IMG/VR virus record: IMGVR_UViG_2802428989_000001
Coordinates: 1-64,000 of that record
Origin: a virus
Strand: one strand, 5' to 3'
Length of the DNA stretch: 64,000 nucleotides
The translations under genes were made by a program, and so were the position numbers. Below are positions 3,178-63,595 of the stretch, in pieces. Within the stretch, counting starts at the first letter, position 1, and the number at the start of each line of letters is the position of its first letter. The notes under the pieces are model-generated. The model worked only from the letters and a program-made list of their open reading frames with translations, had not been told where the DNA came from and ran no database searches.

Positions 3178-4529
3178 TGGCACTGAAACTCGGTTCACTA
3201 TTTTCGGGCGCTGGAGGCCTGGATCTTGGTGTCGCTTCCATCTTCGACGCTGAGACCGTCTGGGTCTGCGAATTCAACAAAGACGCTCAGAAGGTGCTCG
3301 CGGCCCGCTTTCCGGGTCTACCCAACTTGATCGACGTGACCACCGTGGACTGGGCGACGGTAGAGGGTGTTGACATCCTGTGCGGCGGTTTCCCATGCCA
3401 GGACGTGAGTTGCGCGGGTGTTCGCAAGGGGCTTACCGAGGGGACGCGCTCTGGTCTCTGGTCCTACTTCGCCGAGGCTATCTCTGTGCTTCGCCCGAAG
3501 TTCGTCGTCATCGAGAACGTGAGGGGACTGCTCAGTGCAACCGCCGATCGCAACATGGAACCCAACGACTCAGACCTGGGAGAAGACGCAGGACAACCTA
3601 CACTCAACGCAGCCGGAGCCGTACTCGGAGACCTGGCCGGACTCGGGTACAACGCGAGCTGGCGGACTGTATCCGCGTCATGGTGGGGAGCCCCGCATCA
3701 GCGCGAGCGAGTCTTCATCCTTGCCTATCGTGCCGACCTCACGGCGACAGAAGTCGAAGAAGCAATCCGACCCGAATCAGGGGTCCATTTTGGACTGATC
3801 ACCGCCGAGTCGGGTGATCTGCTGCCGACACCCACCGCTGGCTACTACACGCGCGGGTCAAAGCATTTGATGCTGCCGTACGTCGCTCAGTATGCAACCG
3901 GCCACGATCCGGTGCCCGATCGGCCAGATCTAAAGGGTCGTCCTGATCCACTTCTGCCTACACCTATTGCGCTCCAGAACAACACACACAACAGCGCAGG
4001 TAAGCCGATGCTGACCGGACTGGTCAAGGAGTTGTTTCCGACGCCGACAGCGAGCGACGGAAACGGCGCTGGACCACACGGTGACGGCGGCCCGGATCTG
4101 CGGACGGTGGTCAGCGGCATGTTCCCGCTGATGCCTACGCCGGTGGCGTCCGACGACCGAAACGGCGTGCACCCCGACAAACGGCGGAGCTACGGCATCG
4201 GTGCGTCGATCGTCCAGATCGTTGATCTCGCTGTCGCCTACGGCGAACCCGAGTGGCACCAGTACGACCCGGCGATCAAGCGATGGGAGGCGCTGTTTCG
4301 TCCAGCGCCGTATCCCGTGGTACCCGGCAACGGGTCGCCTCAGCTCAACCCTCGGTTCTCCGAGTGGATGATGGGCTGGCCGCAGGATTGGGTCAACATC
4401 GACGGCCTGTCTCGTCGCGTCCAGAACCGCATCTGTGGCAATGGCGTCGTGCCGCAACAGGCCGCTGGCGCGCTGCGCTGGATGCTCAGTGACCTAATCG
4501 CAGAGCTGAATGCGGCGGTGGCGGCATGA
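3177..4529 (+). CDS. DNA (cytosine-5)-methyltransferase.
   Basis: Motif I 'FSGAGGLDLG', motif IV 'GFPCQDVS', motif VI 'VIENVRGL', motif VIII 'QRERVFILAY', motif X 'GNGVVP'. An alternative start is ATG 3147. Confidence 0.9.
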   Translation: MALKLGSLFSGAGGLDLGVASIFDAETVWVCEFNKDAQKVLAARFPGLPNLIDVTTVDWATVEGVDILCGGFPCQDVSCAGVRKGLTEGTRSGLWSYFAEAISVLRPKFVVIENVRGLLSATADRNMEPNDSDLGEDAGQPTLNAAGAVLGDLAGLGYNASWRTVSASWWGAPHQRERVFILAYRADLTATEVEEAIRPESGVHFGLITAESGDLLPTPTAGYYTRGSKHLMLPYVAQYATGHDPVPDRPDLKGRPDPLLPTPIALQNNTHNSAGKPMLTGLVKELFPTPTASDGNGAGPHGDGGPDLRTVVSGMFPLMPTPVASDDRNGVHPDKRRSYGIGASIVQIVDLAVAYGEPEWHQYDPAIKRWEALFRPAPYPVVPGNGSPQLNPRFSEWMMGWPQDWVNIDGLSRRVQNRICGNGVVPQQAAGALRWMLSDLIAELNAAVAA

Positions 4530-56896: not shown

Positions 56897-56973
56897 ACCC
56901 CCCTGACGGTCGTAGCACCCGACCCTGTCCGGTGAACCAGGTGAGAGCGCTCCCGTCAGGGGCCTCAAAAGGA

Positions 56974-57012
56974 AACGCCCCCAACCGCATTCAGCTCGCG
57001 GTTGGGGGCGTT
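56974..57012. terminator. Bidirectional rho-independent terminator between convergent genes.
   Basis: 15-bp stem AACGCCCCCAACCGC / GCGGTTGGGGGCGTT with T-rich DNA downstream and A-rich DNA upstream. Confidence 0.8.
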
Positions 57013-57020
57013 TTGTATTT

Positions 57021-58924: not shown

Positions 58925-59731
58925 ATGACACACATGACCGACGACAAGATCGTTGACAAGATCGCAAAGCTGTTGCGACAGGCCGAGGATGTAACAGGGA
59001 CGCCCGAGGAGGATGCGTTTCAAGAGCGCGCCTTCGCACTGCTGGCCAAGCATGGCATCGACCTGGCGACTGTGCGCGCACATCAGCGCGGACTCGACAT
59101 CAGCGACATGCCGAACGCCATCGACACGCTGATGCTTGTTCATAGTCCTTACGCGAGTGAGCAGAAGCACATGCTGTCCATCCTCGCGGAGGCGCTGCAT
59201 TGCAAGACCGTTGGACTCAATGACATCCCGTTCGTGCATGTCTTCGGTATGTCTCACCATGTTGCGCGTCTACAAATGCTCTGGGAGATATTGCAACCAC
59301 AGGCGACGCGCTTGGTTGCCAAAGTGCAGATGTCGAAACGGAAACCGGTTCGCAAGCTCACCCCATCCGAGTGGGCGGCGATGAATCGAGCGCAGCGAAG
59401 AGACCACCTGGTAGAGATGACGCGCGAAAGACGTGCACCGGTATCACTGCACGTTTATCGCCAGTCGTGGTTGATCGGGTTTGCCGCGTCGATCGCTCAG
59501 CGCATTAAGCTCCAGGAAGGAGAGGCCGCCAACAAGGCTGGCGTGGTCGCGCTATACAAGTCCGACCGTGAGCGCGCTGACGACGCGATGCGCGGCGCGT
59601 ACCCGGACGCGGTCAACACTATGGTGGACCAGTTCAGTGACGATGGATTCAACCAGGGTGCGCGCGCCGGACAGACCGCGACCATGGATCGGCCGGTTGA
59701 GTCTGTAGACCCTCTAGGTTTGCCGCGCTAG
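58925..59731 (+). CDS. Hypothetical protein with an alpha-helical N-terminus ('KIVDKIAKLLRQAE...EEDAFQERAFALLAKHGI').
   Basis: ATG immediately after the operator. 268 aa. Confidence 0.55.
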   Translation: MTHMTDDKIVDKIAKLLRQAEDVTGTPEEDAFQERAFALLAKHGIDLATVRAHQRGLDISDMPNAIDTLMLVHSPYASEQKHMLSILAEALHCKTVGLNDIPFVHVFGMSHHVARLQMLWEILQPQATRLVAKVQMSKRKPVRKLTPSEWAAMNRAQRRDHLVEMTRERRAPVSLHVYRQSWLIGFAASIAQRIKLQEGEAANKAGVVALYKSDRERADDAMRGAYPDAVNTMVDQFSDDGFNQGARAGQTATMDRPVESVDPLGLPR

Positions 59732-60157: not shown

Positions 60158-60441
60158 CCGAGTACCTGGGTCTCACTGACATCTGCGCATGCGGTCACGA
60201 TCTGGAAAACCACGACCTCGGCGACCCGCATCACCGCGCCGGCGCGTGCGCTGGCCATGAGCTGGATGGCCCTTGCGACTGCACGCACTACCGGGAGAAG
60301 TGCCGGTGTCCCGAGTGCGACGATCTGGAGGAGATTGAGGTCGAAGAGATGACCACGCGAACCCTGCTGACGACTCTGGGTGTGCTGGTTGGGTTCGGTG
60401 TTCTGCTCGGTATGTCGTTCGGGAGACTGATCAGGCGCTAG
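60154..60441 (+). CDS. Cys/His-rich protein with a C-terminal TM helix. Start could be GTG 60154 or ATG 60139.
   Basis: 'CACGHDLENHD...HHRAGACAGHE...CDCTHY...CRCPECD', then 'LLTTLGVLVGFGVLLGM'. Confidence 0.4.
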   Translation: MTEYLGLTDICACGHDLENHDLGDPHHRAGACAGHELDGPCDCTHYREKCRCPECDDLEEIEVEEMTTRTLLTTLGVLVGFGVLLGMSFGRLIRR

Positions 60442-60473
60442 ATGCGCCACAGTGGCGAAATACGTTGATACGG

Positions 60474-60510
60474 AAGCACCCCCGAGATTCGCTCTCGGGG
60501 GTGCTTTGTC
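60474..60510 (+). terminator. Rho-independent terminator.
   Basis: 13-bp stem AAGCACCCCCGAG / CTCGGGGGTGCTT followed by TTGTCGTTG. Confidence 0.75.
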
Positions 60511-60521
60511 GTTGTGAAAGC

Positions 60522-60710
60522 TTAGAAAGTGGCGTCGATGGAGCGAGCGAAGCTGACTACATTGTCCCGCAGTTGCACTCCCAGGTCTTGCGCCGCGCGA
60601 CACCGCTTAACGAATTCATCAGGTTTGAGAACGCCTGCCATGACATCACATTTCTGGTTGTACAACGATGCCTCGATGTCTATCGCCTGTCTCTTGGTGA
60701 CTATGCTCAT
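60522..60710 (-). CDS. Small ORF (62 aa), low confidence; the locus may instead be a small RNA.
   Basis: ATG directly abutted by the operator GGTAGAGCAGTCTACC (60711-26). Only ~59% GC3. Flanked by two terminators. Confidence 0.3.
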   Translation of the reverse strand: MSIVTKRQAIDIEASLYNQKCDVMAGVLKPDEFVKRCRAAQDLGVQLRDNVVSFARSIDATF

Positions 60711-60752
60711 GGTAGAGCAGTCTACCAGCTGGACTCATGCTTATCAATAAGA

Positions 60753-60805
60753 ACGGCACCCCCGAACCTAATCTCCGGGGGTGCCGTTTCTCCGTTTGTT
60801 TTTCC
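60753..60805 (+). terminator. Rho-independent terminator-like hairpin with a T-tract.
   Basis: 12-bp stem ACGGCACCCCCG / CGGGGGTGCCGT followed by TTCTCCGTTTGTTTTT. Confidence 0.6.
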
Positions 60806-60815
60806 AGCGACGAAA

Positions 60816-62255
60816 TCAGCTCTTCTTGAGCTTCAAGGTGCCGACGTAATCATTGTCGTAATCCCGAATCTCGAAGTCCGTCATGAGGTTCTGGATCTGA
60901 TCGTCAATGGTCGGCGTGGCGATACCCTCTTCGGCCTCAAACTGCGCCTTGAGCTGGTTGTGCAGCGACACCGCCGCGCCAACCAGATCGGTGGTATCCA
61001 GCTTGTAGTTGGTTCCGCCATTGAGCCGACCGATCGCGAACGTCTTGGCTCGCTCCAGGGCCTCGCGTACGAACGCCGGATAGAAACCGACCACCACGCC
61101 ATCACCAAGCTGGATGGTCATCGCCTCATAGACCTTGTCGTAGTCCACGTCATCTGCAAGACGCTCAGTTGCGACGACGGCCTTGATCAGACGTTCAACA
61201 CCGTTGCGGTCCAGTGCCGCGACCTCAACCACCGCATCGATGCGCCCAGGGCGGAGCATGCCCTTGTGGATGCGCTCAAAGTGGTTGGTAGTCATCAGAA
61301 GTGCGACCTCGGACCCCTTGGATGTGACACCATCGAAGGTCTCCAGCAGCTTGGACACCTGGTCTACGTCGCTGGTCGATGTCTGATTGTCCACGTCCTC
61401 AATGAATACCACCGCGGGCTGGTACAGCTTCGCTGTACGGAGAACATCATTGATGTCATCACCCGGTCGTGCAGCGATGAAAGTCCAACCATTCTGGACA
61501 GCCTCCAGCGCGGTGAGCTGACCAGCCGAGGTCTTCCCGGTACCGTACGGACCCTCCAGCAGCAGCGCGCGCTTGATGCGCACGCCCTCGCCTTTGAGTG
61601 CCTTGCGGTGCCGAATCACCGACCACAGAGTGCCTTCCAGTGTGCTCATCACTTCGTCGGAGAAGACGATCTCACTCGGTACGATGGTCGCGAGGTTCAG
61701 GAACTCCGGTTCCTCGGTGCCGACGATCGCCTTACCGCGATAGATCGAGTTGGTTTTCAGCTCCTCGCCGATCGCATCAAGGAACTCACGCGCGATTTTG
61801 GCGTTCTTCTTCGCAGTGATGACGGTGACATGAGTGACGATCCCGTTGTCGCGATCGCGTTTGCCGCCGACGTTGACCAGCGTCCGATTGTCAACGCTGG
61901 GCAGGTAGACGTTGCCCCATGGAACTTCCAGGGTCTCGGTTGCCGAAATCTGCACCGTGCGGGTTTCCGGGGGTTCGGGCGGGGAGAAGAAACCGCCACC
62001 ACTCGGAGCGCCGATGGTGATACCGAACATGCGCTTCATCACCCGAGAGGTGGCGACCGCGCCGTCAAACGGACGGAACTGGTAGGTGCGGCTAGTCTGC
62101 TGCACCGACTCGGCCTCATCCTGCATGCGCTCCAGGATCTCCTTGGCGCGACCGTATGTAATGCCTTCCGGCAGAACGATCTGCGGGTTCTTGTGAAAGG
62201 TAACCTCATCACCGGTGATGATGTCGGTATCGTTCATTGGTTTTCTCACTTTCAT
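60816..62255 (-). CDS. Classic-clade AAA+ ATPase with a ~250-aa N-terminal domain of unknown function.
   Basis: Walker A 'GPYGTGKTS'. Walker B 'VVFIEDVD'. Second region of homology 'RPGRID'. Start chosen at MKVRK (RBS GGAAGGTG). The ORF track extends it to 62393. Confidence 0.8.
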   Translation of the reverse strand: MKVRKPMNDTDIITGDEVTFHKNPQIVLPEGITYGRAKEILERMQDEAESVQQTSRTYQFRPFDGAVATSRVMKRMFGITIGAPSGGGFFSPPEPPETRTVQISATETLEVPWGNVYLPSVDNRTLVNVGGKRDRDNGIVTHVTVITAKKNAKIAREFLDAIGEELKTNSIYRGKAIVGTEEPEFLNLATIVPSEIVFSDEVMSTLEGTLWSVIRHRKALKGEGVRIKRALLLEGPYGTGKTSAGQLTALEAVQNGWTFIAARPGDDINDVLRTAKLYQPAVVFIEDVDNQTSTSDVDQVSKLLETFDGVTSKGSEVALLMTTNHFERIHKGMLRPGRIDAVVEVAALDRNGVERLIKAVVATERLADDVDYDKVYEAMTIQLGDGVVVGFYPAFVREALERAKTFAIGRLNGGTNYKLDTTDLVGAAVSLHNQLKAQFEAEEGIATPTIDDQIQNLMTDFEIRDYDNDYVGTLKLKKS

Positions 62256-62307
62256 TGAATGCACCTTCCGCACCTTGCGAAAGAGGTTGTTGTTGGTGAT
62301 GTTTGAA

Positions 62308-62350
62308 CACCCCCGCCCGCCACCCGGTATAGAAAGAACGGGCGGGGGTG
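62308..62350. other. Perfect 12-bp GC hairpin (CACCCCCGCCCG ... CGGGCGGGGGTG) in the leader region of the AAA gene.
   Basis: 19-nt loop. Lies between the upstream small gene and the AAA start. Confidence 0.5.
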
Positions 62351-62515
62351 CGTTGTGTTGGTGACGTGAGCCAGTCTTAGGGATCGCGCCCAATGACCAC
62401 TTAGCGCGCTAGCTCGCGTCCTTACCGTGGCCGCGACCAACGAAATCACTTCTCAGACAAACGAGACGGGACCAGGGGGCGTGAGGGTCGCTCACGACCC
62501 CTGGTGATCTGCTGA

Positions 62516-62701
62516 CTAGCTAGACAGCAGATCTTCGCCTTGTTCGATGTGGGCTAGCTCTGTCTCCAGGGATTGCACTTCGGCCACGAGAGCACGAAGC
62601 TCGCGTTTGCGATTTGCAATCTTCTGGGTGACAACCCTGCGTCGTTGGCGCAGGGTTGCTAGCGCCTCATCTCGGCTCATCCCGTCAGGCAGTTGAACCA
62701 T
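62516..62701 (-). CDS. Small coiled-coil protein (61 aa).
   Basis: Strong SD 'CAAGGAGGTGAAC' before ATG at 62701 (the ORF track starts it at 62743). Confidence 0.45.
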   Translation of the reverse strand: MVQLPDGMSRDEALATLRQRRRVVTQKIANRKRELRALVAEVQSLETELAHIEQGEDLLSS

Positions 62702-62774
62702 GTTCACCTCCTTGTTTCCGCTTGTCGTCGTTGTGATTGACACCTTTCGGTGTCGCTGATCAGTGTAGCAGCAA

Positions 62775-62883
62775 TGGTAGACAGGTCTACCAATATGGAC
62801 TCACTGAAAGTGTTGTACAAGGCAACGCTACGTCAAATGGTGGACATAGACCTCGTGCAGTTTAGGTAGTAGAGTCATCTACC
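62775..62883. promoter_or_regulatory. Divergent promoter region with a perfect 18-bp palindrome and a second GGTAG...CTACC site.
   Basis: TGGTAGAC-AG-GTCTACCA at 62775-92. GGTAG-n9-CTACC at 62865-83. Confidence 0.55.
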
Positions 62884-62907
62884 AACGTGCAACTGAGGAG
62901 GTTCACC

Positions 62908-63105
62908 ATGTCAGAACAGGTTTTCACCGCGACCGACCCGGACGGCGACACGCTGGACGTGCAACACTGGGCCAAGGCGCAGAAGATCACCGTCAAGGTT
63001 CTAGACCGAGACGGCGATTTCCAGTCGGTCGAGCTGGACTATGGCGACGCTGCTGAGCTGGCGACAGCCATCACGGGGACGCTCGCGGAGGTGGCGGGGG
63101 CGTGA
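62908..63105 (+). CDS. Small acidic hypothetical protein (65 aa).
   Basis: RBS 'GAGGAGG' 7 nt before ATG 62908. Confidence 0.45.
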   Translation: MSEQVFTATDPDGDTLDVQHWAKAQKITVKVLDRDGDFQSVELDYGDAAELATAITGTLAEVAGA

Positions 63106-63210
63106 CCGACCCCTACGCAGCGGATGTGTACGACCCTCTGGCGTGCAACTATCCCTGGGCATGCTCGTCTCGTCATAGCGCTTGGCGTCTGAGTGCGCTG
63201 AAAAAATCAA

Positions 63211-63249
63211 GGAACTGAGACCTGCTGTATGGCAATAGGTCTCAGTTCC
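63211..63249 (-). terminator. Rho-independent terminator for the lipoprotein gene (- strand).
   Basis: 13-bp stem GGAACTGAGACCT / AGGTCTCAGTTCC with an A6 tract on the + strand, giving a U-tract on the - strand. Confidence 0.75.
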
Positions 63250-63595
63250 GGTCGTCTACCTTAGTGATCGCCTGATCAACGTGAGATACGCGCGCCGGAC
63301 AGACGTAACTCATGCCCATGCGCGTCGCGTTAATGACGCCGTTGCTGCCCTTGTCATGATTGAGCGCGACCCACTTGGCCATCTCTTCGGTGCTGTAGTT
63401 GCAATGCTCGACCGCTTGGTCATAGAGCGCATCGAAGCGGAAGTCACCATTTGGGTAGGCGCGTCTGAATTCAGTGCCCCAGGCCTGCTGGTTGACCTCG
63501 GACTTCGTTTTGAGTACATCAGGTGCGCTAGCCGGCGCTGAGCACGCCAGGACGCAACCAGCGGTCAGCGCGGCTAGTGCGATCTTGGTGAACAT
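63242..63595 (-). CDS. Secreted lipoprotein (signal peptide plus lipobox LTAGC).
   Basis: 'MFTKIALAALTAGCVLACSAPASA'. Has its own terminator. Moron-like or host gene. Confidence 0.6.
   Translation of the reverse strand: MFTKIALAALTAGCVLACSAPASAPDVLKTKSEVNQQAWGTEFRRAYPNGDFRFDALYDQAVEHCNYSTEEMAKWVALNHDKGSNGVINATRMGMSYVCPARVSHVDQAITKVDDRN

Follow-up and report, generated by a model that had tools for sequence, protein, structure and literature searches.

AAA proteins of the classic clade are usually regarded as motors that thread their substrates. Bcs1, the mitochondrial AAA translocase of the folded Rieske protein, has been described as an ATP-hydrolysing translocase of a folded protein in which the critical pore-loop residues are not conserved (PMC7994207). 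Phages also encode Bcs1 orthologues, for example CcrColossus gp235 and PTm1 ORF060, and a role in membrane-proximal assembly has been proposed for them (Iyer et al., 2021; PMC7824862). Here we examine a phage AAA ATPase that shares several traits with Bcs1, the product of gene 90 of the Mycobacteroides abscessus prophage prophiFSAT01-1, which belongs to cluster MabR (BK061308.1). The DNA analysed, hereafter the window, is a stretch of 64,000 nucleotides (IMG/VR record IMGVR_UViG_2802428989_000001, positions 1 to 64,000) that corresponds to this prophage; a 2.1-kb region is 100% identical, and a window coordinate equals the BK061308.1 record coordinate minus 217. A sequence-only reading of the window had presented the gene as encoding a classic-clade AAA unfoldase that could act on a host factor. 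Its observation is confirmed by our analysis and its interpretation is partly supported.

The maximal open reading frame (ORF) at 60816-62393 on the minus strand has a TTG start and 525 aa, is identical to gene 90, and translates exactly as had been claimed, including the motifs GPYGTGKTS, VVFIEDVD and RPGRID. Orthologues are present in five of five MabR prophages, McProf gp91 among them. No copy is frameshifted or disrupted, which settles favourably the check on relatives that the sequence-only reading had called for, and the ratios of non-synonymous to synonymous substitution (dN/dS) against the four other MabR copies (Table 1) mark gene 90 as a real and functional gene under strong purifying selection. 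GenBank already labels it 'AAA-ATPase', but it is a member of an uncharacterised, phage-specific family of the classic clade.

The gene 90 protein is predicted to be a soluble member of the classic AAA clade with a single AAA domain. The Pfam family PF00004 matches it with 53.9 bits against a cutoff of 21.2 (E = 3.2e-14), and its AF2 model reaches a predicted local distance difference test score (pLDDT) of 92.4 and a predicted template modelling score (pTM) of 0.87. Neither a hydrophobic stretch nor a membrane anchor was found in the protein, the maximum 19-residue hydropathy (KD19) being 1.28 and located in the lid. Walker A, the sensor-1 TTN and the sequence M(L/I)RPGR(L/I)DA are invariant over 119 close and 5 very distant family members, and such an intact nucleotide site, with Walker A, the sensor-1 Asn and two arginine fingers, implies that ATP would be hydrolysed at the subunit interfaces of a ring. 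In the same 119 and 5 members, Walker B invariably reads hhhhED(I/V)D, with the acidic pair in swapped order; among 121 full-length representatives, at least 94 have ED and two have DE, so that the canonical hhhhDE is not the pattern of this family. The segment that should carry pore-loop 1 is missing. In the model, DSSP assigns β2 to residues 252-255 and then α2 to residues 262-271 with no helix between them, and the loss is also visible in gapped alignments to Cdc48 and in the MAFFT block. The spacing from GK[ST] to the acidic pair, that is from Walker A to Walker B, is 44 residues versus 51 in FtsH, p97 D2 and Vps4, seven residues shorter. Pore-loop 2 of the family is short, polar and variable, and is modelled with low confidence. 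Classic AAA proteins have no sensor-2 arginine in the lid (GAD-type, not GAR); the corresponding family motif appears to be PAF(V/I)RE, with P387 and A388 invariant and no GAR. The assignment to the classic AAA clade made by the sequence-only reading therefore stands, whereas its term 'unfoldase' is unsupported, because pore-loop 1 is deleted (AARPGDD), pore-loop 2 is polar and Walker B has the ED order.

Among the AAA cores that we compared, only that of Bcs1 has both the ED swap and the short pore-loop-1 segment. Mouse Bcs1 (PDB 6u1y/6ukp) has the Walker B sequence LLEDVD, the short connector 'SLTDSSLSDDRL', a spacing of 44 residues, equal to the family median, and the sensor-1 sequence MTTNY. 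Bcs1 and the phage family share a single AAA domain behind a specialised N-terminal domain (N-domain), a Walker B of the form ED(I/V)D, a sensor 1 of the form (M)TTN(H/Y), and a short β2-α2 segment without pore-loop-1 residues. Alignment of the family with the Bcs1 AAA core by hhalign gave probabilities of 98.5-99.5%, with only a small gap across the connector. Because the pore loops are reduced, the acidic pair is swapped and only Bcs1 is alike among the cores compared, the explanation that we favour, tentatively and with less than even confidence, is that gene 90 encodes a soluble ring ATPase that would remodel folded protein targets in a Bcs1-like, non-threading manner through its private N-domain. 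With pore-loop 1 deleted, pore-loop 2 short and polar, and an ED Walker B, such a ring would most likely not thread or unfold substrates through its central pore. Nucleotide-driven movements of the ring and the N-domain would probably grip, remodel or release a folded protein or complex, as described for Bcs1, and the N-domain could be the substrate-binding or cap layer.

Several points weigh against this explanation. Overall, the hidden Markov model (HMM) scores are no closer to Bcs1 than to FtsH or p97. Alignment of the N-domain profile with a 55-sequence Bcs1 profile gave an hhalign probability of 1.2%, so that no homology to BCS1_N is detectable. The Bcs1-like traits of the family may be convergent, the missing canonical pore-loop 1 is no proof against translocation since other loops could line the pore, and for every family member we infer the oligomeric state, the ATPase activity and the substrate. 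Further differences from Bcs1 concern the N-domain, the membrane and the pore. BCS1_N (PF08740) is absent from the family, 15 diverse N-domains had no Pfam match at E <= 10, and Foldseek searches with the N-domain returned only weak matches to the N-terminal parts of viral AAA/BCS1 proteins, with template modelling (TM) scores of about 0.3. The family lacks the N-terminal membrane anchor of Bcs1, and its pore-loop 2 is much shorter. A neighbour-joining tree separates three clades, namely the family, Bcs1 and the canonical FtsH/p97/Vps4 proteins, in an unrooted star in which sisterhood is undecidable. We rejected membership in Bcs1 because the HMM scores are not above those for FtsH and p97, the N-domain is unrelated at profile level and the three-clade star is unrooted. 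The Bcs1 traits are accordingly treated here as an analogy of the 'works like' rather than the 'is a' kind.

True BCS1 orthologues, for their part, are common in large or jumbo phages, and the Bcs1 AAA core alone finds matches in 247 phage records, which contradicts the rarity of classic-type AAA proteins in phages implied by the sequence-only reading. Phage BCS1-type ATPases are variously annotated as 'major head protein', 'cell division protein' or 'mitochondrial chaperone'. Of three such proteins that we checked (L094-L096), two pass the BCS1_N threshold and the third does not; CcrColossus gp235 matches BCS1_N with E = 4e-23.

The best overall sequence and structure matches of the gene 90 protein are Cdc48/p97/VAT, FtsH, PAN and Mpa. 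Together with the intact nucleotide site and arginine fingers, these matches would suit a conventional threading unfoldase, a hexamer that draws a protein of the host or the phage through its pore, either alone or feeding a protease, in the mode of Cdc48, FtsH, PAN or Mpa. We consider this unlikely, because the whole family has lost the pore-loop-1 segment and has a pore-loop 2 that is short, polar and variable, and because the accessory parts of such machines are missing. The protein has no match to Peptidase_M41 or another protease domain, no protease gene is a conserved neighbour, there is no coiled-coil or OB domain, and the family lacks a C-terminus of the HbYX or GQYL type, with a penultimate Tyr in 0 of 119 C-termini. 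The individual systems differ from gene 90 in a similar way. In the type II proteins Cdc48/p97/VAT/AFG2/NVL, two AAA domains occur in tandem, the N-domain is a double-psi barrel, Walker B reads DE and the pore loops are aromatic; the gene 90 protein has none of these features. FtsH has transmembrane segments at its N-terminus and an M41 zinc protease domain at its C-terminus, and the gene 90 protein has neither (TIGR01241, 40.5 bits versus a cutoff of 600). ARC, Mpa and PAN combine coiled-coil/OB N-domains with a docking C-terminus, whereas the gene 90 N-domain is of the α/β type and no docking motif follows the AAA domain (pup_AAA, 22 bits versus a cutoff of 505). Bacillus subtilis YjoB (PDB 7w42) likewise has a single AAA domain and its own N-domain; it is only 19% identical, with no evidence of N-domain kinship.

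The phylogenetic spread of the family also bears on what the ATPase might act on. The gene 90 protein belongs, by a full-length profile match, to PHROG 10440, a separate phage-specific family without assigned function (residues 17-460 of the 479-aa query against positions 16-458 of 483 in the profile, E = 2.3e-75, 255 bits). Searches with tblastn recovered full-length relatives, N-domain included, at about 53% identity in Gordonia Ronaldovirus and at about 30% identity in N4-like Schitoviridae (podoviruses; Johnsonvirus, Pollockvirus and SP58-like), Pseudomonas phage KPP25, Delftia phage PhiW-14, Stenotrophomonas phages and uncultured huge phages. The family is found in 63 phage records and 281 IMG/VR stretches, and its members occur in sipho-, podo- and myoviruses, most of them in lytic phages. 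The N-domain is conserved as strongly as the ATPase core and, used alone, retrieves 728 clusters from 1.84 billion representatives; every full-length top match of this search is an AAA protein of about 500 aa that carries the domain at its N-terminus. A search of 185,579 species genomes yielded only about 26 full-length copies, which are distributed across phyla in the way that prophages would be. The hallmarks by which its sequences define the family are a private α/β N-domain of about 185 aa, an ED Walker B and a deleted pore-loop 1. A literature search found no functional study of any family member. With a catalytic site kept, pore-loop 1 lost and Walker B swapped across 728 clusters from phages of many phyla, the family lends itself to testing a Bcs1-type mechanism on a protein that is soluble and easy to express.

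The sequence-only reading had linked the ATPase to an ART target or to the actinobacterial proteasome. This link is not borne out, given that full-length members of the family are also carried by phages whose hosts are Proteobacteria or belong to other phyla, no neighbour is conserved, and neither a coiled-coil/OB N-domain nor the penultimate Tyr is found. Since the gene stands alone in phages of very different hosts and morphologies, its target is probably either a widely conserved bacterial component or a protein of the phage itself. A more far-reaching version of the non-threading explanation, which we regard as speculative and clearly unlikely, would make the family a phage-wide soluble sister lineage of Bcs1 and a second kind of non-threading AAA protein, one that takes hold of folded proteins and has its own cap domain, the MabR copy remodelling a conserved host complex in lysogeny. 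If this were true, the MabR copy would be a candidate for contributing to the whiB7 and aminoglycoside-resistance phenotype that depends on McProf, and a viral reservoir would be indicated as the origin of the eukaryotic Bcs1 lineage, which is otherwise an orphan.

A partner search over 85 loci returned shadow ORFs inside the gene as its top 'conserved neighbours' and no conserved partner or protease gene. The real neighbours (ParB-like, PD-(D/E)XK, vWA-like and Band-7) are each present in at most 12 of the 85 loci, the ParB-like gene being the best with 12. In lytic phages the ATPase gene shares its strand with the early or replication genes that surround it. The copy of Gordonia phage Keelan belongs to an insert of three genes in reversed orientation that separates the tail assembly chaperone gene from the tape measure gene, and in a Gordonia bronchialis prophage the homologue lies among small early genes. 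The positions in Keelan and in lytic phages, the Bcs1-like core traits and the role proposed for phage BCS1 (Iyer et al., 2021; PMC7824862) would fit an assembly chaperone that handles folded proteins of the phage itself during virion or replisome assembly. We find this improbable, because the membrane anchor is absent, the sipho-, podo- and myoviruses that carry the gene have no common structural partner, the Keelan copy is oriented opposite to the structural genes, and the discussion of one paper places expression of the MabR copy in lysogeny, when virions are not made. A clamp-loader role was tried as another candidate, as a beta clamp is also encoded by MabR prophages, and was rejected: the PHROG matches are weak (E about 1e-3 to 1e-4) and a clamp gene adjoins the ATPase in 0 of the 4 lytic-phage regions inspected. 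Neither the ADP-ribosyl glycohydrolase nor the beta clamp carried by MabR prophages moves together with the ATPase gene.

In the MabR prophages, gene 90 lies in the attR-proximal arm beside a polymorphic toxin cassette, an arm that is expressed in lysogeny, and the gene itself is reported as expressed in that state. McProf gp91 and gp92 are listed among 16 genes expressed in lysogeny (PMC9434293; RNA-seq in PMC8191103). For gp91 this is a statement made in the discussion of a paper, which is a further reservation about the remodelling explanation as applied to lysogeny. McProf raises aminoglycoside resistance in Mycobacterium chelonae, and gp91, as one of just 16 McProf genes with reported expression, is a specific candidate through which the prophage might act on its host. 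Its genomic position, its place on the list of lysogenically expressed McProf genes, its own leader and terminator, and weak IetA/IteA matches at the Walker A region could also point to a prophage defence or superinfection-exclusion ATPase or a host-fitness factor, expressed in lysogeny to sense incoming phages and block them or to alter host physiology (the whiB7 and aminoglycoside phenotype). This is the least probable of the explanations weighed here, since the PADLOC matches cover only about 55 residues around the P-loop (E = 1e-5 to 1e-2), no effector domain or partner was found, and lytic phages, in which the gene has the orientation of the early and replication genes, account for most of the family. 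The matches to IetA/IteA of IetAS span residues 195-250 only (E 9e-6 to 3e-3), and no IetS protease is adjacent. The PADLOC defence assignment was rejected as P-loop-level noise from IetA and TRIP13.

The features of the locus are collected in Table 1, in which the coding sequence (CDS) is shorter than the annotated one. The true start of gene 90, as judged from sequence comparison, is the ATG at 62237 (MNDTDIITG...), and the start at 62393 is wrong. This conclusion follows from single-nucleotide indels in the extension, an invariant ATG and the N-termini of homologues. In an alignment of five MabR upstream regions, several single-base indels separate close relatives inside the 156-nt annotated extension, while the ATG and the purine-rich stretch preceding it are invariant in five of five prophages. 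Family homologues start 5-40 aa ahead of the conserved IITGDEV and lack the 52-aa extension, and the prophiFSQJ01-1 orthologue in GenBank already starts at the ATG equivalent to 62237. The N-domain is therefore about 185-190 aa long, instead of the roughly 250 aa given by the sequence-only reading, and the hairpin of the upstream region falls in the 5' leader. In GenBank, the start codons given for gene 90 and for its orthologues in McProf, prophiFSIL01-1 and prophiFVLQ01-1, which are four of the five MabR genes called 'AAA-ATPase', take in the non-coding leader and yield proteins of 525-541 aa, and these apparent errors matter for cloning of the gene.

Table 1. Features of the gene 90 locus, in window coordinates.
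Feature	Position	Strand	Basis
Corrected CDS of the AAA ATPase (gene 90), 473 aa plus stop	60816..62237	-	ATG 62237 kept in five MabR prophages; dN/dS 0.02-0.18
Family-specific N-terminal α/β domain, residues 1 to about 185	61683..62237	-	
AAA large (α/β) subdomain, residues about 190-345	61203..61670	-	
Walker A, GPYGTGKTS	61527..61553	-	G229, G232, G234 and K235 invariant in 119 sequences
Shortened β2-α2 connector AARPGDD replacing pore-loop 1, no aromatic-hydrophobic-Gly	61455..61475	-	
Walker B, VVFIEDVD, acidic pair swapped (E280-D281)	61389..61412	-	E280, D281 and D283 invariant
Sensor-1 region, TTN (N318)	61284..61292	-	T316 and N318 invariant
Second region of homology, RPGRID, arginine fingers R329 and R332	61236..61253	-	Invariant
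Lid (small helical) subdomain, C-terminal helices and β-hairpin	60819..61202	-	Secondary structure of the model
Annotated 5' extension of the CDS, predicted non-coding leader	62238..62393	-	Indels among close relatives; homologues without the extension
12-bp perfect GC hairpin in the 5' leader	62308..62350	-	Inverted-repeat scan and folding
Nearly invariant upstream block of about 110 nt, candidate promoter or regulatory region	62355..62465	-	Alignment of MabR upstream regions
Intrinsic-terminator-like hairpin directly 3' of the stop codon	60752..60788	-	-34.2 kcal/mol, z = -4.9

The leader hairpin is exactly as the sequence-only reading had described it, although the coordinates of that reading, like the GenBank CDS, had included it in the coding sequence. 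Its arms (62308-62319 and 62339-62350) are 12 nt long, 100% complementary and separated by a 19-nt loop, and its folding energy of -32.9 kcal/mol (z = -5.2) is equalled by 0 of 200 shuffles. At the same leader position, prophiFSQJ01-1 has a 15-bp GC hairpin of different sequence (L007, about 3784-3900, minus strand), with a second hairpin ahead of it, and the leader stem-loop is therefore conserved as structure, not as sequence. As prophiFSQJ01-1 has no co-oriented upstream gene, the hairpin there cannot be the terminator of one.

The block upstream of the hairpin is near-invariant across MabR despite divergent flanks, and this extends to prophiFSQJ01-1, which lacks the upstream gene gp91 and has a CDS of only 79% identity. 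A 77%-identical copy of the block lies in an intergenic position in the unrelated M. abscessus phage phiGD17-1 (L093, 2501-2582), where it precedes different genes (hypothetical, band-7 and RtcB), and the block may be a portable promoter or regulatory element. A sigma-70 promoter scan found no site in the leader or in the block, and by eye the conserved block holds no convincing -35/-10 pair. An Rfam scan of 60400-63300 found nothing relevant and no family in the block, its sole match being a 26-bit CcrR1 hit on the terminator hairpin. With the conserved block, the leader hairpin and the terminator-like hairpin, gene 90 looks like an autonomous transcription unit; its own leader, including the purine-rich stretch before the ATG, and its own terminator would let it be expressed autonomously.

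Inverted repeats of this kind are few, with only 15 in the 64-kb window, and several perfect ones lie directly 3' of annotated genes (56973-57013, 60474-60506 and 60752-60788). Of the four perfect GC-rich stem-loops formed by these three and the leader hairpin, three follow annotated gene ends, several have a common C-rich arm (CACCCCCG or GCCCCC), and a clear U-tract is lacking.

Antisense to the ATPase gene lies a 597-aa ORF at 60465-62258 on the plus strand, with equivalents in 78 of 85 homologous loci. We take these antisense ORFs to be shadow ORFs of a GC3-rich coding sequence and not a gene. The small flanking genes (gp89 and gp91 of MabR, gp47 and gp48 of Keelan) gave no informative family, and gp89, like gp91, is absent from prophiFSQJ01-1. 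Two positions from the ATPase, gp86 (58925-59731, plus strand) has an N-terminal motif that is the same as the start of DUF2786 proteins, and DUF2786 and DUF6011 genes lie near the ATPase homologue in the Gordonia bronchialis prophage (L009, 2561-3301). In N4-like phages (Erwinia phage Frozen gp38-gp39, L004, 7469-9619; Pollock, L012, 500-3402) the ATPase gene lies close to a pair encoding an N4 gp24-like AAA protein and a gp25-like metallopeptidase, which is a separate ATPase module, and in Pollock a Ser/Thr phosphatase gene lies directly 3' of the ATPase.

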